This document shows, piece by piece, positions 28,260-64,000 of a stretch of DNA of 64,000 nt. The stretch lies in IMG/VR virus record IMGVR_UViG_3300045256_000567; one strand, written 5' to 3'. The notes under the pieces are model-generated. The model ran no database searches, was not told the origin of the DNA, and saw only the letters and a program-made list of their open reading frames with translations. A program made the translations under genes and the position numbers. Origin of the DNA: a virus. How positions within the stretch are numbered: the stretch's first letter is position 1; every line of letters starts with the position of its first letter.

Positions 28260-28447
28260 ATGGGAACATTCTACTCCAAAGACGGTCCAATACAAACTGA
28301 AAAAGACTACGATGTCGTGAAAAGGGTTCCAGAAGGGCAGGTAGTCTATAACTCTAAATTTCCTAACCTTGTTTTTTATCAAAACCAAGTACTTCCAATG
28401 AGAAATGGAGTAATTGTAAACTACCAAGATTCTGATTGGGTAATGGA
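28260..28447 (+). repeat. Left arm of a 188-bp inverted repeat (partner 37828..38015)
   Basis: Base-by-base identical except for one synonymous mismatch (28355 vs 37920). Confidence 0.95.
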
Positions 28448-33155: not shown

Positions 33156-36100
33156 ATATCCGCGTGATTTTGCTACACTAAGTAAATAGTCTAAAACTGT
33201 TTCATATTCTTTAAATCTTTTTCTAAATTCTTCTTCTCCTAAAACCGAAGCAAACTCCAGTACAGTTGAAGGTATTTCATTACCATTAAAAAGAGCATAA
33301 GTATTTAATAATACACCGCTGTCTACATATTTAGATAGAATTTTAATAAATTCATTTTTCTCTTTAACATCTACAGATAAATCAGAAAAGAATTCTCTAA
33401 ATTTTTCATATATGCTGTAATCGATAATATTAATATCTCCATTAATTACTCGGTTTATATATGCATCTACAAGATCGATAATTGTGTGTTTTTTTGATTT
33501 ACCTAAACTGCTTAATTCAATATCCTCTTTAAGTTTTCCTATATATTTTTTAATAGTTGGTGATATAGATTTGTAAAATTTTTTCCTTTCGTTATATCCC
33601 GCCAAATAATCTAATTTATGACCAAGTTCGTGAAATAAAATAGTTTTTAAACTTCCTATATATTCGTTAATATTTTCATCCAAAATATTTTTAGGATAGT
33701 CATTTGATTGGTCTTCTGTATTTGATATTTCAGTTTCTGTGCTTAATCTCTGTTTTTTAGAAATTTCACCATATTCCAATTCTTTTTCTAGCAAATCAAA
33801 TTCTGTACTTACACCTAATAAATTTGTAGATATACCAAACTTTCTTAATGAATCTAGGACATCATGAAATATATGCTCACCTCTTCTATAAAAAGATCTG
33901 AAAATGCCTGGAACCATTTTTATTGAACCTTCTTTTGAAACATTTTCTAATATTTTAGAAAATTTTTCATCAGTTGTTTTTTCTACTATCTTTTTTGAAA
34001 GTCTTGAAATTTTATACATAAATCTAGAAGATATGTTTCCTAGGGTGTATAAAGGAAACATCTCAAAATGAAATGTACTTTCTAAATTATTAGATTTTGG
34101 AATATATGGGGAAAAGCTTATACCATTTTCATCATAAAAAAATACAGGACTTATCCCTAAAGATCCTTCAAGTATTAGCTGTTCAGCGAGAAAGTTACCA
34201 AAATCTTGATAATCTTCCCCTGTATATACTAGCTTATCCAATATACTTTCTAACATTCCAATTGATGAAATATAATTACTAGTTTCAATTTCTCTTAGAA
34301 AATTTTTAAATTTTATTATTTTTCCCTTTATTTGTTCTAACTCATCTGATCCTAATCCTAGTTTTTCTTTTTTATTTGCATATTCCTCAAATAACTTATT
34401 TATATATTTATAAGAAATTCTTTTAAAAGAATCAATTCTTATAAAAGACGGTATAATAATAAGTTTTTTCTCTTCTCCACGTTTAGATCTTGTTGTTATT
34501 TCTATTTGGTAATTATTTGAAGTTGTATCCGTATAAGTTTTTTTATACTCGGCTTTAATTATATCTCCAAATGTTTCTTTAAACGAACCATTTTGATCGT
34601 CAAAAAAATGATCAAACGCATCAACAGAAAAATCTTTTAATATAGATGATCCAATATTTTCATCTAATTCTCTTTTCCATTCTTGTGTTCTACCACTATG
34701 TGAAGAAATTAATAAATATAGGTCAATGTTATTACGCATTGACATGATAATACTATTTATTGTATTGATTGCGTCCACGTTATTACGATCTTTATAATGA
34801 TACAAATTATCCATAAACGGCCTTATTGGACCTAAAAACTTTTCATTTGAAACAATTAATGGAAAACTGTAGGCCATTGATTCAGCATAAGATAAATCAT
34901 CTAATGTTTTTGGAACTCCCCAAAAAATATCTTTTAATGAACCTAAAGAAATTCTCTGATGCTTTGCTCCTGCAATTTGTGGTCTTGGTATTTTGTTGTT
35001 TTCAACTAAAATATTTACTCTACCATAAAAATTAGGATTTATAGCACTAAACATAGGGCTAACTCTTTCAATTACTTTTTCCGACAACGAAAAATTATTA
35101 TCTTTTCCTGGAGATGTATATGGATAATATACAGTACTCGCAAAATCTATATATAAATTATTATCATGTTGCAATGAAATTTTTAGTATTGGTATTCTTT
35201 TTTGGTTATATTTAGAAATAGTAAGTATTGTAAATGATCTATCAGGAGCATTATTTGTAAAATTAAATGCAAACTCTCTATATTTTTCTAAATCTTTTAC
35301 AAGTTTCATAAAAAATATATGCCCAGAAATATGGTGACTTGGAGAACCACTAGAAATAGAAACCGTAAAATTAGAGTTGCTATTAGATTCCATTAATATA
35401 TCTGATAAAAGAAATTTTGCTGATAAAATTTTTCCACCAATTCTTATAAGATTTCTTCTTAATTTAAAACCAGTAGATAAGTTGCTTAAATTATTTACGG
35501 CATCAAGCATTCTATAAAAAGCTTCATTAAATTTATAAATTGGTTCTGTTTTGTATTCCGAATCTATGAATTTAACCATATAATCCATGTATTTTGCTAT
35601 TTCTTTTATTCCTTGATTATACATTCCTAAAAACAATTCATCTTCTTCTGTAAGATCACCATCTTTTAATTGCTCAATGGCCTCTTTTAATGCATTTATT
35701 GCTTTTAATTTATTTTCATTTATAAAATTTATGCGTTCCAATCTTAAAGTTTTATTTTTACTATGAAGATCAGAAAAATTTCCATAATTATAATCGTAAA
35801 GAAAGCTATCTATTCTTTGCAATAAAGATTCTTGTAAAGAAGCCGCCAACGCATAATCATATTTTTCAAAATCTACTAATTGTTCATATAATTCTTTTTT
35901 TAAATTCAAAATATTTAAATTTTGTTTCATTAAAATATACCCTATATGTGCATCATATTGGGGGTGATATAAATCCTCGAACATCTTTACTGTATCAGAT
36001 ATAAAATTAGCGACTATTGTAAATTTTTTTAAATCTTCTTTTGATTCTTCCAATTTTTTTAACATTTTCTTAAAAATTTCGTTTATTTTATTTGAATTTG

Positions 36101-39211: not shown

Positions 39212-39244
39212 CACTACTAAAAATTTTTTCTTTTGGGGCATTTA

Positions 39245-42200
39245 ATGGGTGTTCGATACTTACAAAACGGACAAACAGAACCAATACTAGATCGTAATGG
39301 AAATCCTGTAGATTATGATGTAGTTGTTTATGTTCCTGAAGGTTATGTATTAGTAAATAAAGATAATTCTAACAATTTTTACAAATCTGGAACTAGAGTA
39401 AATCCAAAATCAGCTCCTAAAGGTGTAAAAGTAAATTATCCTGATGCTAAGTGGGAGCTAGTAAGCGAAGCATCATTTTCTTCTGTATTACAACAAGCGC
39501 AACAGCAACAACAGCCTCAACAACAACAGCAACAAGAACTACTATCTTCAAGAGAAAAAGAGCTTGATGAACTAGTAGAAGACCCAAATCTCAAAAAAAC
39601 CTTAGAGTCTTATTTAAGTAATGAAGAGATTTCTAAAATCCTGAATAAAAAGCTTTCAGAAATACAAGATGCGTATCAGAAAATTTCTGAAAAATCTTCA
39701 GAAGAAGAAATAAATGATTTCTATGAACAGGTAAAAAGTATTACAAATGATATGCTGTATTTAGTAGCAAGCTCACTGGAGCTACAGGCTGAAGGAAAAA
39801 ATGAACGTCAATTATATCCAATTAGTAATGAAGAATACTTAGAAAAATTTAAAGATTCTATAACTAAATTATCGCTTTTACTTTTAGGAAAACAATTAAC
39901 TGAAATAGATTTAAAAGATCTTAAAGATATAATCTCTTCTACTTTTGAAGATATAAACATACAGGATTTTTTATCATCTAGAAATTCCCGTATTCTAATA
40001 AAGAAAGATTTTGATCCCAAGTTTGAAGATTTTGTAGACAAACTTATTTCTTCTAGTATAACTCAAGAAGAAAAAGAACAAGAATTAAATAGATTAGAAT
40101 TAGAAGTAGCAGGACTGCTAACAAATGTAACTGATTATTTAACAGAACACGATCTAAATGAGCTTGGAACTGCTATATCTAAACAAATAAATGAATTTAG
40201 AGAAATGTTAAAGGAAGGTCAGCTTTCTGATCAAGATGTAGAAAAAGTAAAAGAAAAAAATCTGATAGAACTTTTGAGAAATAAGAAAGATGTTTCACAG
40301 CTTACTGAAGGAGAATTAAAAGAACTAATAGAATCTGTACCTGAAAAAGAATATACAGAGATAGAAGAAGTAAAAGAAATTACATCTGAAGAGGAGCTAA
40401 AAGATGAAGAAGCATATACAAGAGGATTAGGAGTTTTCTTTGACCGTTCTTTAGAAGATGTAGAAAAATACATTGACCACATAGAAGGAACCTTTTTATC
40501 TCTAAAAGCGATAGACTCTTTCACCAAACAAGACCTATTAGATATGTATATAGGTCAATTGGGTGGTATGGAGTTTAGTGGTGCTGTAAAAATGCTTAAT
40601 TTTGTTTATGCACTCATGGAGCTTGACAAAAAATTTTCTGGAATGAGTAACGTACAGAAATTCATGGAATTGAAAAAAGACCCAACTTTGTTTAAAGAAA
40701 TGCTAGTAGGCGCGTGTGTATCGAAAAAAATTTCTTCATTTCATAAAAAATCCAGAATAGACAGTAGTTCTACTAATGTAGGTTCTCCAAATAAAGATGT
40801 AATTACAAAAGCAACTAGTGAATGTGAACAGAAGTTGGATCCTGTAGCCAACGCGGTCATTGATTATATGCGAGAATACGAAACTTCTTATATATATGGA
40901 ATTTTGGATATTACAGATAAAGTGCATCAATCAATGATAAAAACTATTTTTAGAGAAGAAATAAAAAATAAAGACGATCCTTTAATAAATCTAAAAGCAA
41001 GAAACATTGCTGCAAGAAATATTATTAATAGAGTACAAGAAATAAAAAGATTCAAAGGAGTAAAAGAAGAAGAAGCAAAAGTAAAGGCGGAACTTGAAGG
41101 GCTAGAAAAAGATTTATCTGATGAAAATACGGATGCAGAATCACAAGCTCTTTCTGAAGAAATACTAGACGAAAAGGTAAAAATTATACAAAAAATTTTT
41201 GGACTTAAAGACAAAACAATACATGCTTTAAGGCAAAAATTTGGTTTATTTAAAACAGAAAACGAAAAACTTTTTGGTCATATTCTTTTAAATATACCTC
41301 TATATGCTGTACCTGAAAATTTAGATGAGTTACGAAATAAACTTTCAGAAGAAGAATTTAGTGAAATACTAGAAAATTCACCAACTGCACAATCTCTGTC
41401 ATTAACCTTAAGCGCGTTTTCTTCTGATTCTGCTAATGTAAATAATTTTACAAACTTGACACCTAATAGAGACTTTAATATTTTACTTTCTAACTATATA
41501 GAAAGATTTATAGTGTCTTTAGCACAACGAAGATATAATGGAGAGTTTATAAAAGAAGATGAAGTAGAAAATCTGTTTCTTGATTTACAAACTGAAACAC
41601 AAACATCTATAAGAGATTCATTAGAAATGATTGTAGAATTTTCTGCTAATACTGATTTTATCAATTTAGATGAAGAACAAGTATATAAAAAGATACTTGA
41701 AATGTTTTTACCAAAAATAAAAACTGCTTTGATTAACCTTGGGAAAAGTGAAAATAGGTATGGAAATCACGGATATGAATATTTATACTTTATAAATTAC
41801 GATAACCCAAAAGATAACTTACCAGAAAAAGAATTTATTCCAAGCGAAGATAGTTATAAAGGTTTGGTAAGAGATCTATCTTATATAGCGGTTTTTAGTA
41901 CTATGTTAAAAACCTTTGAGTTGTTTTACAAAAAGAAACTTTCTTTGCCTGATGGTAGAACTGGAATTATTAGCCTTATGTCTAACATACAAGAAAATAT
42001 ACCAAATGCTTTAAGCTCCATAGAGCCTAATAATGAAAATGCAGGTAGAGATGTAATCTATTATTATGATAACAATGATGGAAGATACAATTTTGTTTTT
42101 GATTTGTTCTTTCCATTTATACACCCTAACAATCAAAGATCGTTTGAAGGAGAATATATAGGCAGTATTAAAGGTTTTGTTAGTCAATTACATTTATTTG

Positions 42201-45061
42201 ATACTATACTAGAAAAATTGTCAGAAGTTGTAGAAAATGAAGAAGAAAAGACATTTTTTGATATATTAAAATCGTCATTTTTTTCTTATGGAACACCAGG
42301 GGAAGAGTTTAGTACCTGGCGTTATATTCGCTCGTACAATAAAATAAGCGGTGCAACTGTTTTTATACCTAATGATTTAGAAGCTGAAAAAAATAAGGAG
42401 GCTTCTTCATCTTTATCATCACAGGGGTACAGTTATTCTTTTAGGGCTGTACCTTTTATTAAATATTTGAGAGAAAAGGCCGGAATTAATGTAGATATTG
42501 ATGACGTAGAATCATTAGAAAAAATTTTGGGAAAGGCTTTTTTATCTTCTATTAAGTACTTACCAGTAAAAGAAGGTAAAAGTATTGATGGATCTGAAGA
42601 TTTAAAGGTAGTTTTTGAAAAAGGCACAAATACAGAAGAAGTTGGACAACAAGAACAAAGCGTAGAGCAGGATATACAACAAACACAAGAATCAGAACAA
42701 AAAAAGGAACAACAAGAATCAAATAATCAAGAAGCTGAAGAAAATAATATTCAACAAAGCCAACAAACTGAAACACAAGAAAAAGAAAAGGCTTCTAACG
42801 AATCCATTAGTTCACAACCCACACAAGAGAAGATTGAAGAAACTGAAAATGAAGAAAAAATAACCCAAGAAGTTGGACAAGCGGAATCAAAAGAAACAAG
42901 TTCAACTATTAGAAACGATATAGAAACTGAACTTAATCAAGGTCAAGTTACAGAAACAAGTGAGATTAAACAACCTGAAACCGTTGCAAAAGAACCTAAA
43001 AGACGGCCTTATTATAAAGATTTAGCAAAACCACCTAAAAAAGCATCTACTAAAAAAGAAAAACCAGAAAAAGCTCCTGAAAAAGAAGTTGAATCACAAC
43101 CTTTACAAGAAACAAGTCCGGCTATTAAGAACAATATAGAATCTAAACCTGAACAAGATCAAGTTTCTGGAACAAGTGAAATTAAACAAACTGAAACTGC
43201 AACACAGCAACCTAAAGAAGAAAAACCAAAAGAAATTTCGGAGAAAACAGAACCGAAAACAGAAGAAAAAAACATTGAAGAAAGATTAAAATATCTATAT
43301 TTAAATTATCCTTCAATTTATAACGATTTTAATACAACGCTAAAAGATTATGTTACAGACGAAGATGCTGCCGAATCATTAAGAAGAGAGTTTTATAACT
43401 TTATACAGTACGGAGTAATAGACCCCGATACACTGGAGGATTTTAGTAAATATATAAATATTTCTCTAGACAGTATTGGAAAAGAAAAAAGAAAAGATAT
43501 TACTTCTTTTTTAGACGAATATAGACAGGCAATTAGAACAAATAGGGATTTTGGTGTATTTGTAAAAGACGTTTCAACCTTAATAAGAGATGGAAAAATA
43601 AATGAACTTACTAGACAAGAAATTGTACAAAAAGCAGAACAATTTTCTAAAAGTTCTTCACCAATAATAAGAGCCTTTGCTAAGAAATTTGCTTCTTCTG
43701 TACAAAAATCAGAACAGTTAAGTAATAAGTATAAAGAAATATCAAGATCTGTTTCAGCTCCTATTAAAGATACTGCAATGTCTATATTAGGAAATCCATA
43801 CAATGAAGGTACTTGGGAAATAGTTCCAGAAGATGATAAAGGAAGAAAAATAACCGTTTCAACAGATTTTTTCGATGGTAATCGTTTGCATATAGATGAT
43901 GTTGCGATACCTATACCAAGTGAAAGCAATATAATTTCAGATACGCCAAATGAGTTTTCTCAAAATGTATTTATAAATTTTATAAGTCTTTTAACAAGCA
44001 ATGACTATGTAAAAGAAAAAATAAAACAGCTACATGGAAATCTAGAAGATAGCAAAGAAATTCCTGAAATGAATATAAAAATAACTGATAGCATAGAAGT
44101 AAGAAAAGCAGCTTTTGGAAAAGCATACTTTTTAAAAGTAAAAGGTCAAACAGAACCAAATGTATATCTAGACCCTTTAAGTTTGTATCAAGCCGTTGCT
44201 TTCACTCTTTATGAGCCAAAAGAAAAGATAGATGAAAGAACAACACAACAAGTACCTGAAGAAAACAAACAAGGCAAAAAACCTTCAAGTGTAAAAAAAC
44301 CTAAAAAGACAAAAGAAAAACAAGAAACTACACCACCTCAACAAACAGAAAAAACAGAGTCACAACAATACCCACAACCTGATATAGAACTACAAGAAAG
44401 TAACGAATCTTCGAGAAGAAATAAAGCCAAACAAGCAGGAAAACCAAAAAAGATTAAAGAAGAGCAAACAAAAATACAAGAAAATTCATCACAGGAGACT
44501 AAAGGATTAGAAACAAAAGATTCTCTCTTTACCATTAATGAAAAAGAAAGAAACAGAATTGCTAAGGCAACAAAAGTAGATCCTGAAAAAGTAGACCTTA
44601 AAAAAGCTTATCAAGCTCAACTTACTAAATATCCCGACAGTATAGATGAAGCATACAAAGACTTCGACGATATAGAAGAATCAGATATTATGGGAGAATA
44701 TTTAGTAGGCTATGATATAAAGCCCTCTAAATATGATGATAATTCTTCTACAAAATCGGTTAAAGCAAAAGACATAATAGAAAAATATGATGAAAAGAAA
44801 GCAAAAGAATCTTTTGGAAAATATATTCTTCCAAAAATGTCTACAGCATTTACTACTATAAGTAAAGAAAAGTTATTAGAGTTTTATGACAGTATAAAAT
44901 TCCCCACCAAAGAAGAACTAATGAAAAATAAACAAACTATTAATAAAAAAGTATTATTAGATTTAGCGAAAAGGATACAAGAAGAAGCAAAAGACAAACT
45001 TAATGTGAACCTTAACGAAGGCTCTCTCTATTGGTACGTATTGTATTCCTTGGCAAGTTAG
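39245..45061 (+). CDS. Giant acidic protein (~1938 aa); probable virion-internal protein
   Basis: The ATG at 39245 (MGVRY) matches MGTFY of the zincin paralogs. It has the shared DYDVV..VPEG leader, a poly-Q linker and E/K/Q-rich disordered tracts. Confidence 0.7.
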   Translation: MGVRYLQNGQTEPILDRNGNPVDYDVVVYVPEGYVLVNKDNSNNFYKSGTRVNPKSAPKGVKVNYPDAKWELVSEASFSSVLQQAQQQQQPQQQQQQELLSSREKELDELVEDPNLKKTLESYLSNEEISKILNKKLSEIQDAYQKISEKSSEEEINDFYEQVKSITNDMLYLVASSLELQAEGKNERQLYPISNEEYLEKFKDSITKLSLLLLGKQLTEIDLKDLKDIISSTFEDINIQDFLSSRNSRILIKKDFDPKFEDFVDKLISSSITQEEKEQELNRLELEVAGLLTNVTDYLTEHDLNELGTAISKQINEFREMLKEGQLSDQDVEKVKEKNLIELLRNKKDVSQLTEGELKELIESVPEKEYTEIEEVKEITSEEELKDEEAYTRGLGVFFDRSLEDVEKYIDHIEGTFLSLKAIDSFTKQDLLDMYIGQLGGMEFSGAVKMLNFVYALMELDKKFSGMSNVQKFMELKKDPTLFKEMLVGACVSKKISSFHKKSRIDSSSTNVGSPNKDVITKATSECEQKLDPVANAVIDYMREYETSYIYGILDITDKVHQSMIKTIFREEIKNKDDPLINLKARNIAARNIINRVQEIKRFKGVKEEEAKVKAELEGLEKDLSDENTDAESQALSEEILDEKVKIIQKIFGLKDKTIHALRQKFGLFKTENEKLFGHILLNIPLYAVPENLDELRNKLSEEEFSEILENSPTAQSLSLTLSAFSSDSANVNNFTNLTPNRDFNILLSNYIERFIVSLAQRRYNGEFIKEDEVENLFLDLQTETQTSIRDSLEMIVEFSANTDFINLDEEQVYKKILEMFLPKIKTALINLGKSENRYGNHGYEYLYFINYDNPKDNLPEKEFIPSEDSYKGLVRDLSYIAVFSTMLKTFELFYKKKLSLPDGRTGIISLMSNIQENIPNALSSIEPNNENAGRDVIYYYDNNDGRYNFVFDLFFPFIHPNNQRSFEGEYIGSIKGFVSQLHLFDTILEKLSEVVENEEEKTFFDILKSSFFSYGTPGEEFSTWRYIRSYNKISGATVFIPNDLEAEKNKEASSSLSSQGYSYSFRAVPFIKYLREKAGINVDIDDVESLEKILGKAFLSSIKYLPVKEGKSIDGSEDLKVVFEKGTNTEEVGQQEQSVEQDIQQTQESEQKKEQQESNNQEAEENNIQQSQQTETQEKEKASNESISSQPTQEKIEETENEEKITQEVGQAESKETSSTIRNDIETELNQGQVTETSEIKQPETVAKEPKRRPYYKDLAKPPKKASTKKEKPEKAPEKEVESQPLQETSPAIKNNIESKPEQDQVSGTSEIKQTETATQQPKEEKPKEISEKTEPKTEEKNIEERLKYLYLNYPSIYNDFNTTLKDYVTDEDAAESLRREFYNFIQYGVIDPDTLEDFSKYINISLDSIGKEKRKDITSFLDEYRQAIRTNRDFGVFVKDVSTLIRDGKINELTRQEIVQKAEQFSKSSSPIIRAFAKKFASSVQKSEQLSNKYKEISRSVSAPIKDTAMSILGNPYNEGTWEIVPEDDKGRKITVSTDFFDGNRLHIDDVAIPIPSESNIISDTPNEFSQNVFINFISLLTSNDYVKEKIKQLHGNLEDSKEIPEMNIKITDSIEVRKAAFGKAYFLKVKGQTEPNVYLDPLSLYQAVAFTLYEPKEKIDERTTQQVPEENKQGKKPSSVKKPKKTKEKQETTPPQQTEKTESQQYPQPDIELQESNESSRRNKAKQAGKPKKIKEEQTKIQENSSQETKGLETKDSLFTINEKERNRIAKATKVDPEKVDLKKAYQAQLTKYPDSIDEAYKDFDDIEESDIMGEYLVGYDIKPSKYDDNSSTKSVKAKDIIEKYDEKKAKESFGKYILPKMSTAFTTISKEKLLEFYDSIKFPTKEELMKNKQTINKKVLLDLAKRIQEEAKDKLNVNLNEGSLYWYVLYSLAS
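42869..43216 (+). repeat. Intragenic degenerate direct repeat (~130-bp units, 216-bp period)
   Basis: EVGQAESKETSSTIRNDIETELNQGQVTETSEIKQPET vs EVESQPLQETSPAIKNNIESKPEQDQVSGTSEIKQTET. Confidence 0.8.
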
Positions 45062-54439: not shown

Positions 54440-54628
54440 TAACATTACAACCAATCAGCAGTTAGCATGTATTGTTGATGCTAATGTAGCGAGTAAAGTT
54501 TGCTAGCGAGTGCATTAGAAGAAACGCACCCATAAACGCAAGACCAAAATACGCAAAATCACTAATACCCCTTCCAAAAAGAGGGGCAAAGCGTTTACTT
54601 TTGAAAGGCGGAAAAAATAAAAATCCCC

Positions 54629-54769
54629 CTATTCGGGGGATTTTTCGGATTCCTCGGATTCTTTGTATTTAGAATCCTTGTATCCTTCTTGCTTCAATTC
54701 CTTGATAATTTCCTTAACCTCTGCGATAGAAATTCCGGATTCCATGATTTCGTAAAACAGGTCTTTCAT
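54629..54769 (-). CDS. Small acidic early protein (46 aa; not in ORF track)
   Basis: MKDLFYEIMESGISIAEVKEIIKELKQEGYKDSKYKESEESEKSPE*. AAGGAGG RBS; the stop codon lies in the terminator hairpin at 54619-54645. Confidence 0.8.
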   Translation of the reverse strand: MKDLFYEIMESGISIAEVKEIIKELKQEGYKDSKYKESEESEKSPE

Positions 54770-54810
54770 TTTTACCTCCTTCACAAGAAGACTATTCTTC
54801 CTGTAATTTC

Positions 54811-54839
54811 ATATTACCACAATACAGCAATACTGTCAA
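54811..54839 (-). promoter_or_regulatory. Sigma70-type early promoter
   Basis: TTGACA-17-TAATAT. Confidence 0.8.
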
Positions 54840-55028
54840 TACCCACAACACACACACACAATCAACGGCTAGCGTGTATTGCAAGTATTGCTGTAGCGAG
54901 TGGAGTGTGTTAGCGAGTGCATTAGGGTAAACTCACTCATAAACGCAGGACCAAGCAACATAAAATCGCTAATACCCCCCTGAGCGGGAAGCGTTTACTT
55001 TTAAAAACAGCAAGAAAAAAATCCCCCC

Positions 55029-55217
55029 CTATTTAGGGGGATCTTGATTGAAATAATCGCTATCTAAATACCTAATAACAACGTCAGGGTACTCCTCCGA
55101 AACCTTCTTTAGAACATCATCAATCCGTTCAGCAGAAAGGACGCACTTATAACGGAACCCCTCAATTCTCTCCAGAATTGACCAGCCATCTGAACAGGGA
55201 ACTAGATAAAGATTCAT
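55029..55217 (-). CDS. Small early protein (62 aa; start revised to ATG 55217)
   Basis: AAGGAGG precedes MNLYLVPCSDGW. The longer track ORF runs through the promoter. Confidence 0.8.
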   Translation of the reverse strand: MNLYLVPCSDGWSILERIEGFRYKCVLSAERIDDVLKKVSEEYPDVVIRYLDSDYFNQDPPK

Positions 55218-55257
55218 TACTTCCTCCTTACAGGAAGGCTGTCCTTCCTGTGACTTA

Positions 55258-55286
55258 ATAATACAACAATTCAGCAATGTTGTCAA
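55258..55286 (-). promoter_or_regulatory. Sigma70-type early promoter
   Basis: TTGACA-17-TATTAT. Confidence 0.85.
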
Positions 55287-55499
55287 TACCCTTACGACCA
55301 ATCGGCGGCTAGCGTGTATTGTTTATGCTCATTTAGCGAGTAAAGTTTGCTAGCGAGTGCATTAGAATAAACGCACCAATAAACGCAACGCAAAGAATAC
55401 CAAAATACAAAATCCCCCTATTGAACAGAGGGGGGGTGAAAAGCGTTTACTTTTGAAAGCCGATAAACAAATAATCCCCCCAATTCGGGGGGATTTTGT

Positions 55500-55703
55500 C
55501 TAATCCTCGATCCTCTGCAAAACCTCCTTACCAGTTTTAGGGTACTTGAACACCTTATACCGGATCTTGTTGTACTCTACAACCTTACCGGTATCCTGGG
55601 GTCCACTTGAAGCGCGACAATTAGGGCAAAGATCAGGAACCCGACCGACGCCTTTGTACTCAAAAATCGCGCCGCACTTCTTGCACTTCACTAGTTTTTC
55701 CAT
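55500..55703 (-). CDS. Small zinc-ribbon early protein, copy 1
   Basis: CKKC...CPNC; promoter TTGACA-17-TATTAT at 55738-55766; terminator at 55473-55495. Confidence 0.85.
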   Translation of the reverse strand: MEKLVKCKKCGAIFEYKGVGRVPDLCPNCRASSGPQDTGKVVEYNKIRYKVFKYPKTGKEVLQRIED

Positions 55704-55911
55704 AACAACCCCCTTTGTAGGTTCTTCCTACACCTTTATAATAGCATAATAAGTCATAGTTGTCAATAGGTATAATTTAGGTATACTTGAGGCATACTTG
55801 AGCGCGTATGCATTTACAAAAGGTTGATAACCTAGAAACTAAAAAATGAGTAAACGCTTGGGGTACACAGATTTACAATACCCCCTGTATTAAAAAATAC
55901 CCCCTTTTAAA

Positions 55912-56373
55912 TCAATCCAAAAACTCTAAATACCCGTCAAATACACCTAATGAAAAAGCTTTCTTTCTAGAGGATACCAAGATATCTGCTGTATTACTGT
56001 ATCTAGAGTGCATGGTATCGTAAACGATTCCTTCTATTACAGATTCATTAGAAAGATATATTTTTACTTTTTTCCCGCAAATCTTTTTGCCGTTTGAGAA
56101 AAATAGATCTCTAGAGAGTGCGATAACTGTTTCTTTTACTTCTTTTAATTTCCCACAAGAAGTAGTTAATGGATCATTATCGGTTTCTTGCGAAGAAAGA
56201 GTATAGAAAGAAATTCTATTGAGAGGAATTTTATTATTTTCTATTTCGCGCGATTTTTCTTTAATAAAAAGCATTTTTCCTATTTCTTTTGAGAATTCTA
56301 AATATTCATGAGAAGAAGGCGAACTCGAGATTGCACTAGTTAACATCAAAGTTAAAATCAGAGTTTTTTTCAT
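55912..56373 (-). CDS. 3D-domain (MltA-like double-psi barrel) cell-wall-acting protein with signal peptide
   Basis: FYT...ETDNDPLTTSCG, IALSRDL, VYDTM...ADIL; hydrophobic N-terminus; GGAGG RBS. Confidence 0.75.
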   Translation of the reverse strand: MKKTLILTLMLTSAISSSPSSHEYLEFSKEIGKMLFIKEKSREIENNKIPLNRISFYTLSSQETDNDPLTTSCGKLKEVKETVIALSRDLFFSNGKKICGKKVKIYLSNESVIEGIVYDTMHSRYSNTADILVSSRKKAFSLGVFDGYLEFLD

Positions 56374-56489
56374 TTATACCTCCGCTACGTTCTACAGTAC
56401 TAATACACGACAGTCTAACACATATGAAACAATACTACAAACTAAAGCGTTTATTTTGATTTGTGCATTTTTTGCACAAATCAAAAAAT

Positions 56490-57014
56490 TCAAAACACTT
56501 CAAAAAAATTAAAATGACTATAACTGTAGAATTTAATTTCTTTTATGTATTTATTTTCCTGAAAATTTATTTTTTTATTACTAAAAAGTAAAAATGAAGA
56601 TCTAATAACACATCTTGTTTTTCCTTTGTATAGTTCTATAGTTTCATTAAAGTCTATAGAATCTGCTATTTTGTTTAAATCATAGTTATATTCTTTTAAA
56701 TCAAAAAAGGCGTTTTTTGTAACTTCACTATTTGGACTTTTATAGATAGGTTTTTCATTATAAAATTTTATTTTCAAATCAATGTTTATTCCCGAAAAAT
56801 CAAGAAAAAACTTTTCTAATAATTTAGAAAATTCGTTTTCGTGTATCTCATAATAATTTGTAGTTTCTTTAATATTTGGGGCGTTTTTTTCTACATATAC
56901 ATAATAGATATTAGAATCTTTCCTGCATGTATTTATTGCGTAGAAATTTCCAAATTTGGAAACGATTTTATCTAATAAAGTTTTTTTTAATTCAAGTAGC
57001 GAGTTTTTGCGCAT
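56490..57014 (-). CDS. Hypothetical protein, C-terminal [LIV]F family (paralog of 59210..59731)
   Basis: Ends FFEVF; TGTATACT lies 6 nt before the ATG. Confidence 0.75.
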   Translation of the reverse strand: MRKNSLLELKKTLLDKIVSKFGNFYAINTCRKDSNIYYVYVEKNAPNIKETTNYYEIHENEFSKLLEKFFLDFSGINIDLKIKFYNEKPIYKSPNSEVTKNAFFDLKEYNYDLNKIADSIDFNETIELYKGKTRCVIRSSFLLFSNKKINFQENKYIKEIKFYSYSHFNFFEVF

Positions 57015-57063
57015 AGTTTCAGTATACAGCGTTTACTTTTAGAAAAATTTTTCAAACCAAAAA

Positions 57064-57579
57064 TCAAAATATACTAACAACGTTAGCGGAGCGAAAGATA
57101 GAAAATTCAATAAAGTTTAAAATGTAGTCATCATTTAACTCACATCTACCGTTTGGGTACAAAAGTATAGATATTTTTACTAACAAATTTTTTACTTCTT
57201 TTATATCTTCCGGTTTTTTGAAGTTAATAGTTTTTAATCCATACAGAAGCTTTTCTAAATCTTTTCCAAAATCGGCGAAATTTAAAGATAGAATAGTATA
57301 TTCCAACAAGGCATCATCGCAATATGGGTAAATAAATACTTTTGTTGTACCCAATCGATCTTTAATATTTTCTGTGTTAATAATTTCATTAAACCTGTCT
57401 GTACTTAATGGATAGTTTTCTGAATGACCGTCTGAATAGGTTACTGTAATACCGCGAATATAATTTGAGAAAAAATTATTTAAGTAGTTAGCTTCTAATG
57501 AATAATTTTTAACAATTTGAAGTAAAAAATAATCAGCAACTTCATCAAAAATATCATCAAAAGTTGTGTAGGTAAGCAT
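57064..57579 (-). CDS. Hypothetical protein, C-terminal [LIV]F family
   Basis: Ends VVSIF; TTGACC-18-TACACT lies 5 nt before the ATG. Confidence 0.75.
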   Translation of the reverse strand: MLTYTTFDDIFDEVADYFLLQIVKNYSLEANYLNNFFSNYIRGITVTYSDGHSENYPLSTDRFNEIINTENIKDRLGTTKVFIYPYCDDALLEYTILSLNFADFGKDLEKLLYGLKTINFKKPEDIKEVKNLLVKISILLYPNGRCELNDDYILNFIEFSIFRSANVVSIF

Positions 57580-57672
57580 GCTTTAGTGTACCACGACACA
57601 TACTAGCAGGTCAAGTACACATATAGAGGAATAGCGTTTACTTTTGAAAAGTGGGAAAAAATAAAAACCCCC

Positions 57673-57792
57673 TTATTCGGGGGTTTTAGAATCCTTGGAT
57701 TCAGAATTCTTTGATTCTGCATATCCTTCTTCCTTCAATTCCTTTAAAATCCATCTCGAATCTTCAATTGAGATACCAGATTCCATCAAATC
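57673..57792 (-). pseudogene. 5'-truncated paralog of the 46-aa gene at 54629..54769, disrupted by IS605 insertion
   Basis: DLMESGISIEDSRWILKELKEEGYAESKNSESKDSKTPE* begins immediately after the IS right end. Promoter, RBS and first codons are missing; the terminator at 57664-57687 is retained. Confidence 0.75.
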
Positions 57793-58036
57793 GTGACGAC
57801 TCCTAATTCTAAAGAATTAGGCTTCTCGCATTTAGCGAAGGCTCCGTCCAAGCCATTATCGGTATTTTCTTATTTTCCCGATAATTACCTTGAATCTTAT
57901 GATTCAAGTACCTACCAGCATTTTCAGCTTTGTAGGATTTGGTGTGCTTATCTTGCACAAGTTCATTATACCATAGAATTTCAATTTTTGCATTCATCCT
58001 ACGCCTAAAGGCGTAGGTTTTCTGCAAATCAATGTT
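57793..58036 (-). mobile_element. Non-autonomous IS605-family miniature element (second subtype) with internal promoter and omegaRNA-like scaffold
   Basis: TTAT|AACATTGATTTGCAGAAAA-CCTACGCC-TTTA-GGCGTAGG; TGGTATAAT; four internal hairpins; RE GAAG-CCTAATTC-TTTA-GAATTAGG-AGTCG-TCAC. Confidence 0.9.
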
Positions 58037-58200
58037 ATAAATGTAAAGTCAGTTAGCGGGTGTTATTGTGGTAAACGCACCAATAAACGCACCGAGAAGA
58101 ATACCAAAACACAAAACCCCCCAATCCAAAAAGAGGATGAGCGTTTACTTTTGAACACCCATAAACAAATAATCCCCCCAATTCGGGGGGATTTTGACTA

Positions 58201-58407
58201 CTAGTCAATACGCTGCAAAACCTCCTTACCAGTTTTAGGGTACTTGAGTACCCTATATGTAACGCCGTTATGTTCTATCACCCTTCCAGTATCTTGAGGA
58301 CCGCTTGCCGCTCTACAATTAGGGCAGAGATCAGGCACCCTGCCGACACCGGCATACTCGAAGATTGCCCCACACTTCTTGCACTTCACGAACTTTACAT
58401 TAGGCAT
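58201..58407 (-). CDS. Small zinc-ribbon early protein, copy 2
   Basis: Close paralog of 55500..55703; promoter at 58443-58471; terminator at 58171-58193. Confidence 0.85.
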   Translation of the reverse strand: MPNVKFVKCKKCGAIFEYAGVGRVPDLCPNCRAASGPQDTGRVIEHNGVTYRVLKYPKTGKEVLQRID

Positions 58408-58645
58408 GACTCACCTCTCTTGTAGGTTCTCCCTACACCTTTATAATAGCATAATAAGTCATAGTTGTCAATAGGTATACTTGAGGCATACTTGAACGCG
58501 TATGCATTTACAAAAGGTTGCTAACCTAGAAACTAAAAAATGAGTAAACGCTTGGGGGGGTGAATTTAAACTAATACCCCCATTCGCTAAAATGGGGGTA
58601 ACTAATAGCGTTTACTTTTTAGGCGCGGATTTAAAAAAATTTAAT

Positions 58646-59152
58646 CTAAAAAAGTTGTACAACTGAAAATGTCCTATTTATGCGTATACTTATTCCAAGT
58701 ACTTTACAGTCTTTGTCTTTCTTTAATATTTCATTTAGTGATATATCTTTTTTAATACTGTAAAACATAGAAACTCTTATATTTATTTCCCCGTTATGTA
58801 TTTTTTCTATTTCTCTTTTAGCTTCCGAAAATCTATCTACTAGAAAGAAATCAAATAATCTTTCTTCATTATGAGAAAAAAAGTTATTTAGAGTATTTAC
58901 GTATGTGTCTTCCTTTGTGTAAGAAACAACAATATCTACAGATTCAAATTTTATGTATTTTTTATATTTTCTTTCTATCATTTCTATTGTTTTTTTATCT
59001 ACTAAAGTAAACGGCATTGATACGTCATCTAGTCTCTCCAATTCCAATAAATATAAATCCTTTTCCTCCTTAGAAAATAGTTTAATAAATTCGCTTTCAA
59101 GTTCATAGTTAATTACCTCCACTAGTAAATTTGCTTTATTTATTATATTCAT
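58646..59152 (-). CDS. Hypothetical protein, C-terminal [LIV]F family
   Basis: Ends VVQLF; purine-rich RBS. Confidence 0.75.
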   Translation of the reverse strand: MNIINKANLLVEVINYELESEFIKLFSKEEKDLYLLELERLDDVSMPFTLVDKKTIEMIERKYKKYIKFESVDIVVSYTKEDTYVNTLNNFFSHNEERLFDFFLVDRFSEAKREIEKIHNGEINIRVSMFYSIKKDISLNEILKKDKDCKVLGISIRINRTFSVVQLF

Positions 59153-59209
59153 TTTTCCCCCCTTCTAGTTTTGGTACACTATATATACTATAGATATATG
59201 GAGCAGTGG

Positions 59210-59731
59210 CTAGAATAAGGTTGCTGTATCTATAAACCTGTACATATAATAAGATAAATTTTTTATATACTCATTTTCCATTATTCTTATACCGGCGTCG
59301 CTGTAAAAAATAAATGAATACCTTACAGTGAGTTTATTTTTGCTAGTTACAGACTCTGTAATATCTAAAGGTTCAAAGGATTCAAATACTTGTTCTATGT
59401 TATAGTCATAATCTTCTAAACTAAATTCTGAATATGATTTGTATAAAGGAAAATGTGCCTGTGTGAATGGATTACTATCGTATATTTGTATTCCAACTTC
59501 TACTGCCTCAAAATCAAAAAGATATTTATCTAATAGCTGTAAAAATTCTTCTTTATCAATATCATGTTCAAGTTCTTCTGTTTCCTCAAAGCGAAAATGA
59601 ATGAATTCTGTAAAAAGTTTAAATAATTCTTTATTTTTATTATTAATATTTAAAATTTGATTTTCAGTAATTGCAGATTTAATACTTTTTAAAACTTTGC
59701 TTTCTAGCATATCAGTGGCTTCAGGCATCAT
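59210..59731 (-). CDS. Hypothetical protein, C-terminal [LIV]F family
   Basis: Ends TATLF; aligns with 56490..57014 (EFxxLLxK..xDF, FxLxxYxYxI, ENxYIK). Confidence 0.75.
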   Translation of the reverse strand: MMPEATDMLESKVLKSIKSAITENQILNINNKNKELFKLFTEFIHFRFEETEELEHDIDKEEFLQLLDKYLFDFEAVEVGIQIYDSNPFTQAHFPLYKSYSEFSLEDYDYNIEQVFESFEPLDITESVTSKNKLTVRYSFIFYSDAGIRIMENEYIKNLSYYMYRFIDTATLF

Positions 59732-59747
59732 ACAGTTTTTCCTCCCT

Positions 59748-60155
59748 TTAAAACAGCTCTCTAGTAAGTATAATTATATTAAAACTCACAAATACTTTTT
59801 TACAGGGTACATCTTCAAAAATTTTTTTATCATTTTTAACTTCACATGAAAAATGAAAAATAGTTTTAAAATAATTTTCTTTAATCATTTTTAAAGTATG
59901 CAAATGAACAAAGTCATTTAGTGTTTTTAATTTTTTAGTTGATGAAAACGTGGATAAGGTTTTTGTTAATTCAGTTTCGTCAATAACATAATTTCTAAAG
60001 GATATTTTTTTTACAATAGCATCATTGGCGTTATTTCTATATTTAACGTCGGGAATATATATAACTTCGTGTACGTAGGTGCTATAATTTTGATAAATAG
60101 TAGATTTAGCAGTGTTAATTAACTCATTTTTTATCTCTTCTATAGTTCTGTTCAT
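59748..60155 (-). CDS. Hypothetical protein, C-terminal [LIV]F family
   Basis: Ends TRELF; GGAGG RBS. Confidence 0.75.
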   Translation of the reverse strand: MNRTIEEIKNELINTAKSTIYQNYSTYVHEVIYIPDVKYRNNANDAIVKKISFRNYVIDETELTKTLSTFSSTKKLKTLNDFVHLHTLKMIKENYFKTIFHFSCEVKNDKKIFEDVPCKKVFVSFNIIILTRELF

Positions 60156-60169
60156 TTTTATCCTCCCTC

Positions 60170-60754
60170 TTAAAACAGTTCTTTTACATCTACGAGATAC
60201 GTGAACATAACTTCTATGGGCAGTGTTTTTATGTGTTTTATTTCTATGTTATTAATTGGGTACCAAGTAACACTTGTTTTGTGGTTTTTTAAAATAGAAT
60301 ACAGCTCAAATACATCTTCTTTATTTCCTATCAAAGGAAATTCTATATCTAATCTAAAAAAATGACAATTAAGAAAATCTTGTAATGAAAATACATATCT
60401 TGTCTTATACACTTCAATTATTCTATAAAATGCTTCCCTTAACTTAAAGTTAGCAAGATTTGTTTTTTTATCAAATACAGTAAAGTCTCTGAAATATGAC
60501 ATTATATCAACAAAAATATTATTTTCTATTACCTCAAATCTATTTAATATATCTGTTAGTTTTTCGTATTCGTTATTTTTTATAACCGCCCACAATAAAG
60601 ATCTATTATCTCTTTTTTTATCAATAAATTCTATAGTAATTTTTTCAGATATAGAGTTGGGAACTAAATAAAAATCTCTAAAATATTCTTCCGTTAAACA
60701 CACCAAATCATTTCTTAGTGTTTCGGATATTTTTTTTGTTTCATCAAGCTTCAT
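60170..60754 (-). CDS. Hypothetical protein, C-terminal [LIV]F family (paralog of 60779..61384)
   Basis: Ends VKELF; GGAGG RBS. Confidence 0.75.
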   Translation of the reverse strand: MKLDETKKISETLRNDLVCLTEEYFRDFYLVPNSISEKITIEFIDKKRDNRSLLWAVIKNNEYEKLTDILNRFEVIENNIFVDIMSYFRDFTVFDKKTNLANFKLREAFYRIIEVYKTRYVFSLQDFLNCHFFRLDIEFPLIGNKEDVFELYSILKNHKTSVTWYPINNIEIKHIKTLPIEVMFTYLVDVKELF

Positions 60755-60778
60755 TTACACACCTCCCCCTACAAACTT

Positions 60779-61384
60779 CTAAAATAATTTGTTTATTTTT
60801 GCTCCGAATAAAAACTCTATTTCTACAAAAACATTGTTGCTATTATTGAAAGTTATTTCTTTATATGGAAACCAGGACGATTTTATAGTGTTGTTTCTAA
60901 GAACGTTAAACAATTCAATCATGTAATTTGTGTTAGTTCTTTCTAAGAATACAGATTCTAAGCGCAATTGAAAAAATTGTTTTTCTAGATAATCTTCACT
61001 TAGAATATGTATACTTTTGTAACTGTCCATTAGTTCGAAAAAACTTTTATTTATATCAAAATTATGGATTGGCTTAATTAAATCATCAAAAAATATGTAA
61101 TTGCTGTAATATGTATTTAATTTAGTGTTAACATTTTTTTGTACTTCAAGTTCATTTAAAATATCTTCAGCTAATAACAAAATATCTTTACAGGTAACTA
61201 ATTTTGTTATAGTTCTATCAATCCCGCTTCCTAAAAGACGATCTCCATTGTCAATAAATGTTACAAAAATATTTTCTTGGCACAAGCTAACACAATTATT
61301 AAAATTATCAAAATATTTTTCAATAGCGTAACAAAATTCATTTTTAAAATGATAAGCTTGATTTTTTATTTCGCTAAAGTTCAT
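60779..61384 (-). CDS. Hypothetical protein, C-terminal [LIV]F family
   Basis: Ends INKLF; AGGAGG RBS. Confidence 0.75.
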   Translation of the reverse strand: MNFSEIKNQAYHFKNEFCYAIEKYFDNFNNCVSLCQENIFVTFIDNGDRLLGSGIDRTITKLVTCKDILLLAEDILNELEVQKNVNTKLNTYYSNYIFFDDLIKPIHNFDINKSFFELMDSYKSIHILSEDYLEKQFFQLRLESVFLERTNTNYMIELFNVLRNNTIKSSWFPYKEITFNNSNNVFVEIEFLFGAKINKLF

Positions 61385-61398
61385 GGTTTACCTCCTGT

Positions 61399-61827
61399 TT
61401 AAAACAAAGGTAAAATATTAAACAAATGTTCTTCAAACACATGATAATTTTCATCATGAATGTCTAAAGAAATTTTAATTTTTCCAACTTTTTGAACTTC
61501 AGAAATTTCTTTATAAATTTTTTCAATGAATTTATAAAAGTCATTTATTTTATAATCAAAGTAAATGCTAGAAATATAAAATGATTCTCCGCTTTTAGCG
61601 AAATTAGACGTACCATCCCAAAGTACAAAGCTAATATTATAAGAAATGTGCAAGTCTTTTAAATTCTTTTTTTCTTTTCTTGGACTTACATATTCGTCTA
61701 TTTTTTTTAGAAAGTGAGTATTTACATATTTATTTAAATCAAATAATTGAATTCTATAAGGTTCAACTATATCTTTTAATCTTTTTACTTCTTTTAAGAT
61801 TTCCTGGTTTTTGTTAGGCTTGTACAT
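61399..61827 (-). CDS. Hypothetical protein, C-terminal [LIV]F family (leaderless; start revised to ATG 61827)
   Basis: TTGACT-17-TATCCT lies 6 nt before MYKPNK; ends ILPLF. Confidence 0.75.
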   Translation of the reverse strand: MYKPNKNQEILKEVKRLKDIVEPYRIQLFDLNKYVNTHFLKKIDEYVSPRKEKKNLKDLHISYNISFVLWDGTSNFAKSGESFYISSIYFDYKINDFYKFIEKIYKEISEVQKVGKIKISLDIHDENYHVFEEHLFNILPLF

Positions 61828-61906
61828 GACTATAGGATACACCCACAGCAGTCTACAGTCAAGCCTGCTGCTACTTAGCGTTTATTTTTTTCGCCTAAAA
61901 CTAGTA

Positions 61907-62527
61907 TTAAAAAATATTTTGTAAAGTAATGTTTTTATAAAAAATACAAGTTACTAAAAGATTCCCCGCTTCAAGTATTTCAATCATCATACTTTTGTCA
62001 AATTCATTAAATGAATCCGTGGAAAAAAATATATCTTTATTGTTTTCTATAAAGTTTTTTATTTTATTTTTTTCATTTTTTAGTTCAAAGTCTACGTGAG
62101 ATTGTATAAAGTTTATATTTATATTTGATTTTATACAATCATTGATTGATTTATTTATTTTTAAAAGAATATTCTTTTCGTTTCTATGTAATTCCTCATT
62201 TAAATAATTAAAGTTATTTTGTACGTCTAGGGGTCCCTCTTCAACAGATATGTATGTGTATATTTTTGAATAATCTACTTTTATTTTTCCTATAGAATTT
62301 AGTACTTTTCTGTATAGAGGATTGTTTGCATCTACTGAAGCTATAAACAATTCTCCGTAATCTCTTCTATTTATATCATTTCTATTTTCTACTTCATCGA
62401 AGAAAATATAAAAAATATCTTCTTCATTTAAAATTACTGATGGAAGGTTTTTATTAATTATTTTTTTAAGGGATAAGTGAAATCTTTCAGCAATTCTTTC
62501 TAATTTTGTTAACATAACTAACCCCAC
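61907..62527 (-). CDS. Hypothetical protein, C-terminal [LIV]F family
   Basis: Ends LQNIF; the true start is probably the internal ATG (MLTKLE). Confidence 0.75.
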   Translation of the reverse strand: MGLVMLTKLERIAERFHLSLKKIINKNLPSVILNEEDIFYIFFDEVENRNDINRRDYGELFIASVDANNPLYRKVLNSIGKIKVDYSKIYTYISVEEGPLDVQNNFNYLNEELHRNEKNILLKINKSINDCIKSNININFIQSHVDFELKNEKNKIKNFIENNKDIFFSTDSFNEFDKSMMIEILEAGNLLVTCIFYKNITLQNIF

Positions 62528-62533
62528 AAAAAA

Positions 62534-63094
62534 TTAAAAAATCTCATCTAATTTTACCGTTATATAACCAGTAAATTTTACAATACTTGAATCATTAAAG
62601 TTAGTATTAAAAATTTCATTACGAATTTCGTACCACACTTCATTATTTATTTTATCATTAATAGACAGAATGTATTTTCTGAAAGATTCAACGAGGATTG
62701 AATCAATAGTTATATCTTTATATTCATTAGAAAATGAACATAACACTCCTTTACTAGTAGAATTAGATAGATGTTTTGCTAATTTATTTAACCCCCTATA
62801 ATAAATTCCGGTAGGTCTGGTTACTTTGTTCAATCTATAGTGCATGTATTTAGTACCATTTAATATCCTAACTGAAACACTTTTTTTGCTGAAAAGAAAG
62901 TTGTTGAAAAAAGACAGTAGTAAATAAAACTCTTTAGTTCCCAAATCAACAGAAATACACCCATTTAGTCCACTAAAATTTTTTCTTTTATAGAAGCATA
63001 GCGATAATGTTTTTTCTAAAGTTATAATTAAAAATCTTGGAAGTGTTTTTTTGAATTTTTCTACAACAATCTCTATATCCGTTTCTTTTATCAT
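62534..63094 (-). CDS. Hypothetical protein, C-terminal [LIV]F family (paralog of 63108..63665)
   Basis: Ends LDEIF; shares DIEIVxEKFK, LGTxEF, IRILxG and YYRG with the next gene. Confidence 0.8.
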   Translation of the reverse strand: MIKETDIEIVVEKFKKTLPRFLIITLEKTLSLCFYKRKNFSGLNGCISVDLGTKEFYLLLSFFNNFLFSKKSVSVRILNGTKYMHYRLNKVTRPTGIYYRGLNKLAKHLSNSTSKGVLCSFSNEYKDITIDSILVESFRKYILSINDKINNEVWYEIRNEIFNTNFNDSSIVKFTGYITVKLDEIF

Positions 63095-63107
63095 TATCCC
63101 CCCTAAT

Positions 63108-63665
63108 TTAAAAAAGTTGTTCTAGTTTTAATGATATGTAACTAGTACAAAACATATCACTTGAATTTATAAAGTAAGGTCGCAAAATTTCTTCATTAAG
63201 GTCTCTAAATAAATCGTCACTTATCTCTCCCTTTAAAGAAGAAACATAATTTACAAATGAATTAACAATTATTGGATCCAGGTCTATGTGTGAATATTTA
63301 TGAGAAAGTGTGCAAACTAATTGTTCATTACTTATACTAGATAAATTTTCTACTAATTTTTTTATACCTCTATAATAAACCTTATTATTGTTTCTCACAA
63401 TATCGATTCGCTCATATGAAAAATCATGTCCCTTTAAAATTCTTATATTTATACTTTGTTTGCTAAAAAGACGTTCCTTAAAAAATGATTGTATTAAATC
63501 AAATTCTCTGGTTCCTAAAGTTACAACAATAATTCCTGTAACATCATTTATATATCTTTTTCTGTAAAAATTAAAAACCATTACTTTTTCTAATTCAGTA
63601 ATCAAAAAATTAGAAAACCTGATTTTAAACTTCTCTGCTACTATTTCTATATCACTATTATTCAT
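63108..63665 (-). CDS. Hypothetical protein, C-terminal [LIV]F family
   Basis: Ends LEQLF; GGAGG RBS. Confidence 0.8.
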   Translation of the reverse strand: MNNSDIEIVAEKFKIRFSNFLITELEKVMVFNFYRKRYINDVTGIIVVTLGTREFDLIQSFFKERLFSKQSINIRILKGHDFSYERIDIVRNNNKVYYRGIKKLVENLSSISNEQLVCTLSHKYSHIDLDPIIVNSFVNYVSSLKGEISDDLFRDLNEEILRPYFINSSDMFCTSYISLKLEQLF

Positions 63666-63706
63666 TTTGTCCTCCCTTTTTAGAGAAGTTCTTCTAAGCT
63701 TTTCTT

Positions 63707-64000
63707 TTAAAATAGCGGAGAAAAAGAAAATTGTACTTTCATAAAATAAAGAACTTTTTTTGCCTCTTCAATATTTTCTGAAGGAAATAAATTCTTCAGT
63801 TCTTTTAATTTTTTCTCGTCAATAAAAAAATGAGATGTAAGATAAAAATTTACTAATATAGCAGTATCGGCACTATTATAAAGAAAAAATCTAATGGTAT
63901 CAAAAAATCCAGTTTCAGAATTGAAACATTTTATCTTTGATTTATTTTCTTTGTGAGAAACAGAAAAATCATAATATGAAGGAGGTACATTAGAAAATAA
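63707..64000 (-). CDS. C-terminal part of a further [LIV]F-family protein (truncated by the window end)
   Basis: Frame open from 64000: LFSNVPPSYYDF...LYFMKVQFSFSPLF*. Confidence 0.7.
   Translation of the reverse strand, partial: LFSNVPPSYYDFSVSHKENKSKIKCFNSETGFFDTIRFFLYNSADTAILVNFYLTSHFFIDEKKLKELKNLFPSENIEEAKKVLYFMKVQFSFSPLF

Follow-up and report, generated by a model that had tools for sequence, protein, structure and literature searches.

Large-virus multigene arrays, such as the host-takeover module of SPO1 and the multigene families of poxviruses and African swine fever virus (ASFV), consist of small tandem genes of similar size and of unknown function that turn over almost completely, while the structural genes stay conserved. 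Strictly terminal phenylalanines are familiar from proteins of DNA replication: the tip of SSB (the protein that binds single-stranded DNA), DDD[IL]PF-COOH, and the acidic Phe-ended tails of T7 gp2.5 and gp4 are read by many partners, which recognise the aromatic ring together with the free carboxylate. The C-terminal Phe of the T7 SSB has been discussed before (PMC12339929). Here we analyse a 64,000-nucleotide stretch of viral DNA (IMG/VR record IMGVR_UViG_3300045256_000567; hereafter, the window), in which the region 56490-64000 carries an array of small genes whose products all end in Phe. This Phe array is like the large-virus multigene arrays in its small tandem genes and in its turnover between relatives. 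It differs from them in that a single position is fixed in every subfamily, namely the terminal Phe; to our knowledge, no other array is defined by its last residue.

The window comes from a myophage related to the Thermus phages phiYS40 and TMA. Genes for terminase, sheath, protease, baseplate and the major head protein were identified by PHROG matches, and the major head protein is 84-85% identical to the homologs of phiYS40, TMA and YS40_Isch. The same phage is present as metagenome contigs of up to 153 kb. Four additional loci are referred to below: L002, which matches the window end exactly as its reverse complement; L008, a further locus of the same phage; and L001 and L005, both from phiYS40. 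No tRNA or Rfam match was found in the window, and blastn of the array region against phage genomes gave no match. A published description of the Phe-ended family was not found in the literature searched, the primary phiYS40 and TMA papers lying outside that search.

A shared C-terminal ending

All twelve open reading frames (ORFs) at 56490-64000 end in [LIV]F. In the order in which they would be read from the minus strand, they are:

63707-64000, minus strand: 3' part of a 157-residue member, cut at the window edge and ending FSPLF; the full gene is L002:9486-9959
63108-63665, minus strand: 185-residue member ending LEQLF; its subfamily comprises seven paralogs in the phage and six metagenomic homologs; AlphaFold2 (AF2) model with a predicted local distance difference test score (pLDDT) of 91.2 and a predicted template modelling score (pTM) of 0.84
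62534-63094, minus strand: 186-residue member ending LDEIF, 38% identical to the 63108 protein
61907-62527, minus strand: 202-206-residue member ending LQNIF, with a probable start at 62515; no detectable paralog
61399-61842, minus strand: 142-147-residue member ending ILPLF, with a probable start at 61827; its ortholog in a related phage is 52% identical and ends IIPLF
60779-61384, minus strand: 201-residue member ending INKLF, a paralog of the 60170 protein
60170-60754, minus strand: 194-residue member ending VKELF; AF2 model not confident
59748-60155, minus strand: 135-residue member ending TRELF; its ortholog in a related phage is 39% identical and ends KSLF
59210-59731, minus strand: 173-residue member ending TATLF, with an isoelectric point (pI) of 4.5; a paralog of the 56490 protein
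58646-59152, minus strand: 168-residue member ending VVQLF, with a weak hhalign link to L002:3298-3756 (probability 59%)
57064-57579, minus strand: 171-residue member ending VVSIF
56490-57014, minus strand: 174-residue member ending FFEVF, the last gene of the array; a promoter-like motif ends 13 nt before its ATG

For two members the downstream starts are the better ones (giving 61399-61827 and 61907-62515), in agreement with metagenome gene calls. Re-deriving the endings from the window ORFs gave the same twelve that an initial annotation of this DNA had listed, and ten of them fit the pattern hydrophobic-x-x-[LIV]-F that it had put forward. Its statement that just three pairs can be aligned also stands, BLASTP matches being limited to 56490/59210, 60170/60779 and 62534/63108, as does the lack of a signal peptide in any window member; likewise, none has a membrane segment or a hydrophobic N-terminus. 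The pI of the window members ranges from 4.5 to 9.6.

When stop-to-stop ORFs of at least 100 residues are compared, the [LIV]F ending is present in 11 out of 11 in the region, plus the truncated one, versus one of 51 elsewhere in the window (Fisher p = 5e-12). The sole long ORF with this ending outside the array (2213-2704) codes for a gp25-like sheath initiator; as its phiYS40 ortholog ends in ...LELI, the likeness is coincidental. The genome of the phage is AT-rich (25-30% GC) and favours TTT, with Phe and Tyr making up 8% and 6% of residues, so a Phe ending might come about by composition, or the nucleotides around the stop codon might be a termination context or the promoter or ribosome-binding site of the next gene. 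The Phe frequency and the codon preference are in keeping with such an origin, but the ending counts (12/12 versus 1/51 in the same window) refute chance. The penultimate residue is encoded by eight different codons (CTA, CTT, ATT, TTG, TTA, CTG, ATA and GTG), all three stop codons (TAA, TAG and TGA) are used and the gap before the following gene ranges from about 10 to more than 200 nt. This variety excludes a DNA-level or termination-context cause and places the constraint at the amino-acid level, leaving chance or a nucleotide-level signal a negligible probability.

Extent of the array

The array continues past the window edge: L002 and L008 add 21 genes for proteins of 86-246 residues ending in [LIVMA]F, which flank, on both sides, a gene for an AAA+ ATPase and one for a DUF2201 zincin/VWA protein. 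In total, the window phage has 33 F-ending proteins of 80-260 residues. In phiYS40, 34 of the 47 ORFs in the block at 88.6-118 kb end in F, mostly as E-V-F, versus 9 of 116 elsewhere (p = 2e-16), and the same pattern is observed in two phiYS40-like metagenome contigs and in one closer relative of the window phage. The array is thus larger than the twelve window ORFs and recurs in phiYS40 and metagenomic relatives. In phiYS40-type Thermus phages, roughly one gene in five falls into the Phe-ended set, none of these with a known function or fold.

Pooling 146 block proteins from four phage genomes gave 64 phmmer clusters, mutually unrelated by this method, of which 51 carry the terminal F. In these 51 clusters, F is the last residue of 115 of the 121 members; the others end in I (four), S or R, and none ends in Y, W, L or M.

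Not all proteins of the phiYS40 array follow the pattern. YS40_126, YS40_129 and YS40_134 have no Phe end and share a different C-terminal motif, LPD-x-x-NSVP[ST]. YS40_112-114 (L001:2532-4108) and TMA_110-111 are annotated as 'glycosyltransferase', and two of these end in E-V-I instead of E-V-F; for YS40_112-114 the label finds no support in Pfam.

Selection on the last residue and divergence of the bodies

Homologous pairs of less than 60% identity agree at the last residue in 82% of cases versus 34% for the body, and from -2 to -16 the values barely exceed that of the body; the terminus is thus conserved far more strongly than the rest, as had been noticed from the window members alone. Orthologs in a related phage keep a flush terminal F at 37-52% identity. 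The initial annotation had named orthologs freely extended at their C-terminus as an observation that would speak against its proposal; among 121 proteins there is no extension beyond F, the apparent offsets being contig-end fragments or alignment artefacts. In 10 of the 12 window genes, loss of the stop codon would lengthen the protein by just 1-14 residues; mutation can thus easily produce extensions, and their absence means that they have been removed by selection. For comparison, among 33 window genes outside the family only 11 end flush with their phiYS40 orthologs and only 5 have the same last residue (...NFKR versus ...KKNF is an example). The strictly terminal Phe is under strong purifying selection at the protein level. 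The VWA protein encoded inside the array also ends in F in the window phage; as its orthologs end in F, H or E, we regard this as chance and not as a family tail.

The protein bodies have diverged almost beyond recognition. Between window-phage and phiYS40 members there is almost no detectable similarity, with one cross-lineage cluster, despite a capsid protein that is 84% identical. Apart from the tail, neither phmmer, nor iterated hidden Markov models, nor hhalign with profiles of 3-12 sequences links one subfamily to another; for the 86-residue tail-bearing proteins, hhalign against longer members gave no significant link. The 60170/60779 pair has no further homolog among 5.8e9 proteins, and word-based homolog searches recovered the queries alone. 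The profile of the largest subfamily, run against 1.84 billion representatives, matched 13 proteins, all 13 of which end in F, and in the alignment of these 13 sequences F185 is the sole invariant column. Searches of Pfam and PHROGs gave no above-threshold match, and a search of the PDB sequences gave none.

Anatomy of the tail and a possible reading in trans

The tail has the form [D/E or polar]-[L/I/V]-Phe-COOH and directly follows an amphipathic beta-strand. The alternating strand that the initial annotation saw before the terminus is clearly present: in the window phage the fraction of hydrophobic residues is 0.83, 0.71, 0.54, 0.96 and 0.88 at positions -13, -11, -9, -7 and -5, and 1.0 at -2 and -1, with mostly acidic or polar residues at -3 and -4. 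Glu or Asp occupies position -3 in 65 of the 115 F-ending proteins, usually as a single acidic residue, and Pro is present at -2 in seven. At -2 the lineages differ. Counted by cluster, the window phage prefers Leu or Ile (19, versus 2 with Val) and phiYS40 prefers Val (12, versus 6 with Leu or Ile; p = 5e-4), a shift that body composition leaves unexplained (Val is 18% versus 25% of Val, Leu and Ile together).

The region 56490-64000 is the downstream end of a tandem array coding for some 35 fast-diverging, small cytoplasmic proteins, whose bodies and surfaces have diverged past recognition while the very end is held. The reading that we favour, tentatively, is that the terminal Phe is a plug which a single partner, shared by the members and specific to the lineage, reads in trans. 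Several features speak for it: the end is strictly terminal, Tyr, Trp, Leu and Met are excluded from it, an acidic residue often stands at -3, the shift at -2 is concerted, and no other sequence is shared. In such a mechanism, Phe side chain and free carboxylate would together form the plug, and the array would present a library of variable-surface proteins to one machine, either as adaptors or as its clients.

Predicted structure

The AF2 model of the 63108 protein, calculated from the 13-sequence alignment (pLDDT 91.2, pTM 0.84), is an alpha/beta protein with five helices and the element order H-E-E-H-E-E-E-H-E-H-H-E. Its first strand (residues 20-35) and its 14-residue last strand (170-183) are long. 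No clear match of the model to a known fold was found: template modelling scores (TM-scores) from Foldseek are at most 0.20 against the PDB, the best VIA Z-score is 5.7 and ESM Atlas yields TM-scores of at most 0.32. In BFVD, 10 of the 11 top matches bear accession series typical of phiYS40-type phage proteins. Those identified by accession order and length are TMA_110, which is the best fold match, TMA_114, TMA_091, YS40_114 and YS40_116, all from other subfamilies. The probabilities of these matches are up to 1.0, with TM-scores of just 0.26-0.38; they suggest that a predicted common fold may extend across subfamilies, and the array probably originated by repeated tandem duplication of one alpha/beta scaffold. 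For the 60170 protein, a two-sequence alignment gave a model with a pLDDT of 43, in which the order of helices and strands is only roughly similar to that of the 63108 model. The ESM Atlas models of the 60170 and 63108 proteins are poor (pLDDT 0.37 and 0.35), and their structural neighbours are meaningless.

Several points weigh against a plug that is read in trans. In the 63108 model, Leu184 and Phe185 come directly after strand 170-183, without a flexible or disordered linker, and the last five residues have a mean pLDDT of 83. A partner binding at this two-residue stub would also contact surfaces that are very different between paralogs. If all members have the one fold suggested by the BFVD matches, the tail could be a mere family signature, and the lineage shift at -2 could reflect different founder genes. 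No reader has been found, and there is no gene for a PDZ, TPR or clamp-like protein within the window.

The missing linker and the probable common fold favour, instead, a keystone function within the protein or between subunits, which we consider nearly as likely. The Phe would pack in a hydrophobic pocket formed either by its own chain or, in a homo- or hetero-oligomer, by an adjacent subunit, with its carboxylate hydrogen-bonded there; one scaffold would serve for all members, the last strand would be locked at 65-75 degrees C and the tail would be the signature of a family, not an address. The tail runs on directly from a long terminal strand that is predicted with confidence and whose periodicity places Phe185 on the same face as Ile177, Leu179 and Leu181, and the hydrophobic alternation from -13 to -5 is found family-wide. 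The unusually long strands 20-35 and 170-183 would suit sheet extension between subunits, and array proteins of other subfamilies are the top matches in BFVD, albeit with low TM-scores. However, a residue that fills a core is expected to be exchanged for Leu, Met, Tyr or Trp, as happens at the other hydrophobic positions of the strand, and dangling extensions would be expected occasionally (0/121 observed). A conserved basic residue that could hold the carboxylate is lacking, Phe185 being the only invariant column, and the position in register with the core face, -3, is mostly acidic. A lineage-wide shift at -2 across unrelated subfamilies is likewise unexpected for independent cores. Should the Phe prove to be a keystone of its own protein, the family would still provide a new fold, predicted with confidence, and an unusual instance of selection on the last residue.

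Comparison with known C-terminal signals

Docking on a sliding clamp, to which the initial annotation had compared the tails, is not supported, and neither is docking in the manner of SSB. With the SSB and T7 tips, the array shares an acidic residue, an aliphatic residue and a strictly terminal Phe with free carboxylate (115/121). Those tips, however, are presented on a long disordered linker and have Pro at -2 or an acidic run, whereas the 63108 model has no linker, Pro at -2 is rare (7/115) and there is usually one acidic residue. The beta-clamp motif QL[SD]LF and the T4 gp45-binding tails have an L-F end, often at the C-terminus, as in the array. The beta-clamp motif has Gln at -5 and also works internally; none of the twelve window proteins has Gln at this position, where it does not rank among the eight commonest residues in either lineage, and the array tail is always terminal. 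In the one confident model it also lacks the flexible presenting segment from which gp45-clamp, beta-clamp and SSB-type tails are offered, following directly on strand 170-183. The array tails thus match neither the SSB-tail nor the beta-clamp motif definition.

Class III PDZ ligands, [D/E]-x-hydrophobic-COOH, resemble E-[VLI]-F-COOH, and about half of the array members fit this form. PDZ binding needs four to five free, extended residues, and no PDZ protein has been identified for the array.

The beta-signal of outer-membrane proteins (OMPs), which is read by BamA/BamD and by the PDZ domain of DegS, is the closest mechanistic analogy. There too, an amphipathic last strand is closed by an invariant terminal Phe, which belongs to the fold and at the same time serves as a signal in trans. 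The array proteins differ in having no signal peptide and no barrel (the model is alpha/beta), and their residue -3 is acidic rather than aromatic. As there is no flexible linker, a partner would have to read the plug by beta-augmentation, by strand insertion or on the not-yet-folded chain; for the last of these, the OMP beta-signal would serve as the model.

Candidate readers

The AAA+ ATPase and the DUF2201_N putative metallopeptidase, the latter joined to its VWA domain by a Q/N-rich linker, are encoded at L002:82-2704, just beyond the window end, and correspond to YS40_107/108 of phiYS40. They are the only conserved genes inside the array, with 33% identity between the lineages and a swapped gene order. 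An IMG/VR scan with the ATPase gave no match, and one with the VWA alignment matched phiYS40 alone. Co-folding of the 63108 protein with the zincin-VWA protein scored 0.00, which is evidence neither way.

Partners that could read the plug in trans include this pair of a MoxR-like AAA+ and a zincin-VWA protein, a protease ring of the host or the phage, and a replisome protein that reads acidic Phe-ended tails. The phiYS40 primase (L005 19944-21620) itself has such a tail, acidic and closed by a Phe (...GEESEFTF) and reminiscent of that of T7 gp4, which hints at a possible replisome reader of Phe-ended tails. In its most specific form, and with the same caution, the proposal is that [D/E]-[VLI]-Phe-COOH might be an address tag linking some 35 early proteins per genome to one phage or host reader, for instance the AAA+/zincin-VWA pair. 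The tagged proteins would be an exchangeable library of adaptors or clients for host takeover or counter-defence, and tag and reader would co-evolve (Leu/Ile-Phe versus Val-Phe). Of the interchangeable library on a common hub put forward in the initial annotation, the hypervariable set (pI 4.5-9.6, scant cross-lineage similarity) with its invariant terminal Phe has stood, and no hub has been identified. A role in neutralising host defence, the example it had given, can be conjectured. If the Phe is read by one partner, the hub could be found by a single pull-down that compares wild type with a Phe deletion, which would make some 35 effectors per phage accessible in a genetically tractable thermophile with structure-friendly proteins.

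The same neighbours could be taken to indicate a C-terminal degron or timer. The tail would mark proteins for a protease or unfoldase (the phage ClpP, a host AAA+ protease or the embedded AAA+/zincin pair), such that host-takeover proteins are cleared at the onset of middle and late expression. Bacterial C-degrons need a non-polar end and a free carboxylate (as in ssrA, LAA), a requirement that the terminal Phe parallels and with which the strict terminality fits; phiYS40 carries an annotated ClpP gene, and the AAA+ ATPase and putative metallopeptidase-VWA protein are embedded in the array. On the other hand, the 63108 model offers no free tail for an unfoldase to grip, and the sequence is unlike known degrons; we consider this explanation improbable.

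Transcription and other elements of the region

A 12-nt motif, AAAGTAAACGCT, precedes operon starts. The 8-nt core of the motif (t)tcAAAAGTAAACGCT occurs 11 times versus 1.65 expected, always at 54590-61884 of the window and in 9 of 11 cases on the minus strand, upstream of operon-first array genes and of small ORFs. It is common in the loci of the window phage and rare in TMA and phiYS40-like loci, and is likely the promoter for the transcription class of the array. The internal genes of the array are preceded by strong Shine-Dalgarno sites, whereas in many structural genes TATAAT adjoins the ATG. The middle and late genes of phiYS40 form a leaderless class (PMC3594737), with which this split agrees, so the array looks like a separate transcription class, and probably an early one.

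Elsewhere in the window, three giant ORFs (28260-33155, 33150-38015 and 39233-45061; 1631, 1621 and 1942 residues) have no Pfam domain, and all three match only the N-terminal 100-200 residues or so of phiYS40 YS40_076. The array itself is interrupted by GC-richer cassettes with two closely similar zinc-ribbon ORFs of 67-68 residues (55500-55703 and 58201-58407, minus strand; Pfam zf-FPG_IleRS). Two other, nearby ORFs, 57809-58027 and L002:8396-8653, end in ...TEPSLNARSLIL; as an intact TnpB gene (L008:3514-4542) has a similar C-terminus, both look like remnants of IS605/TnpB origin.

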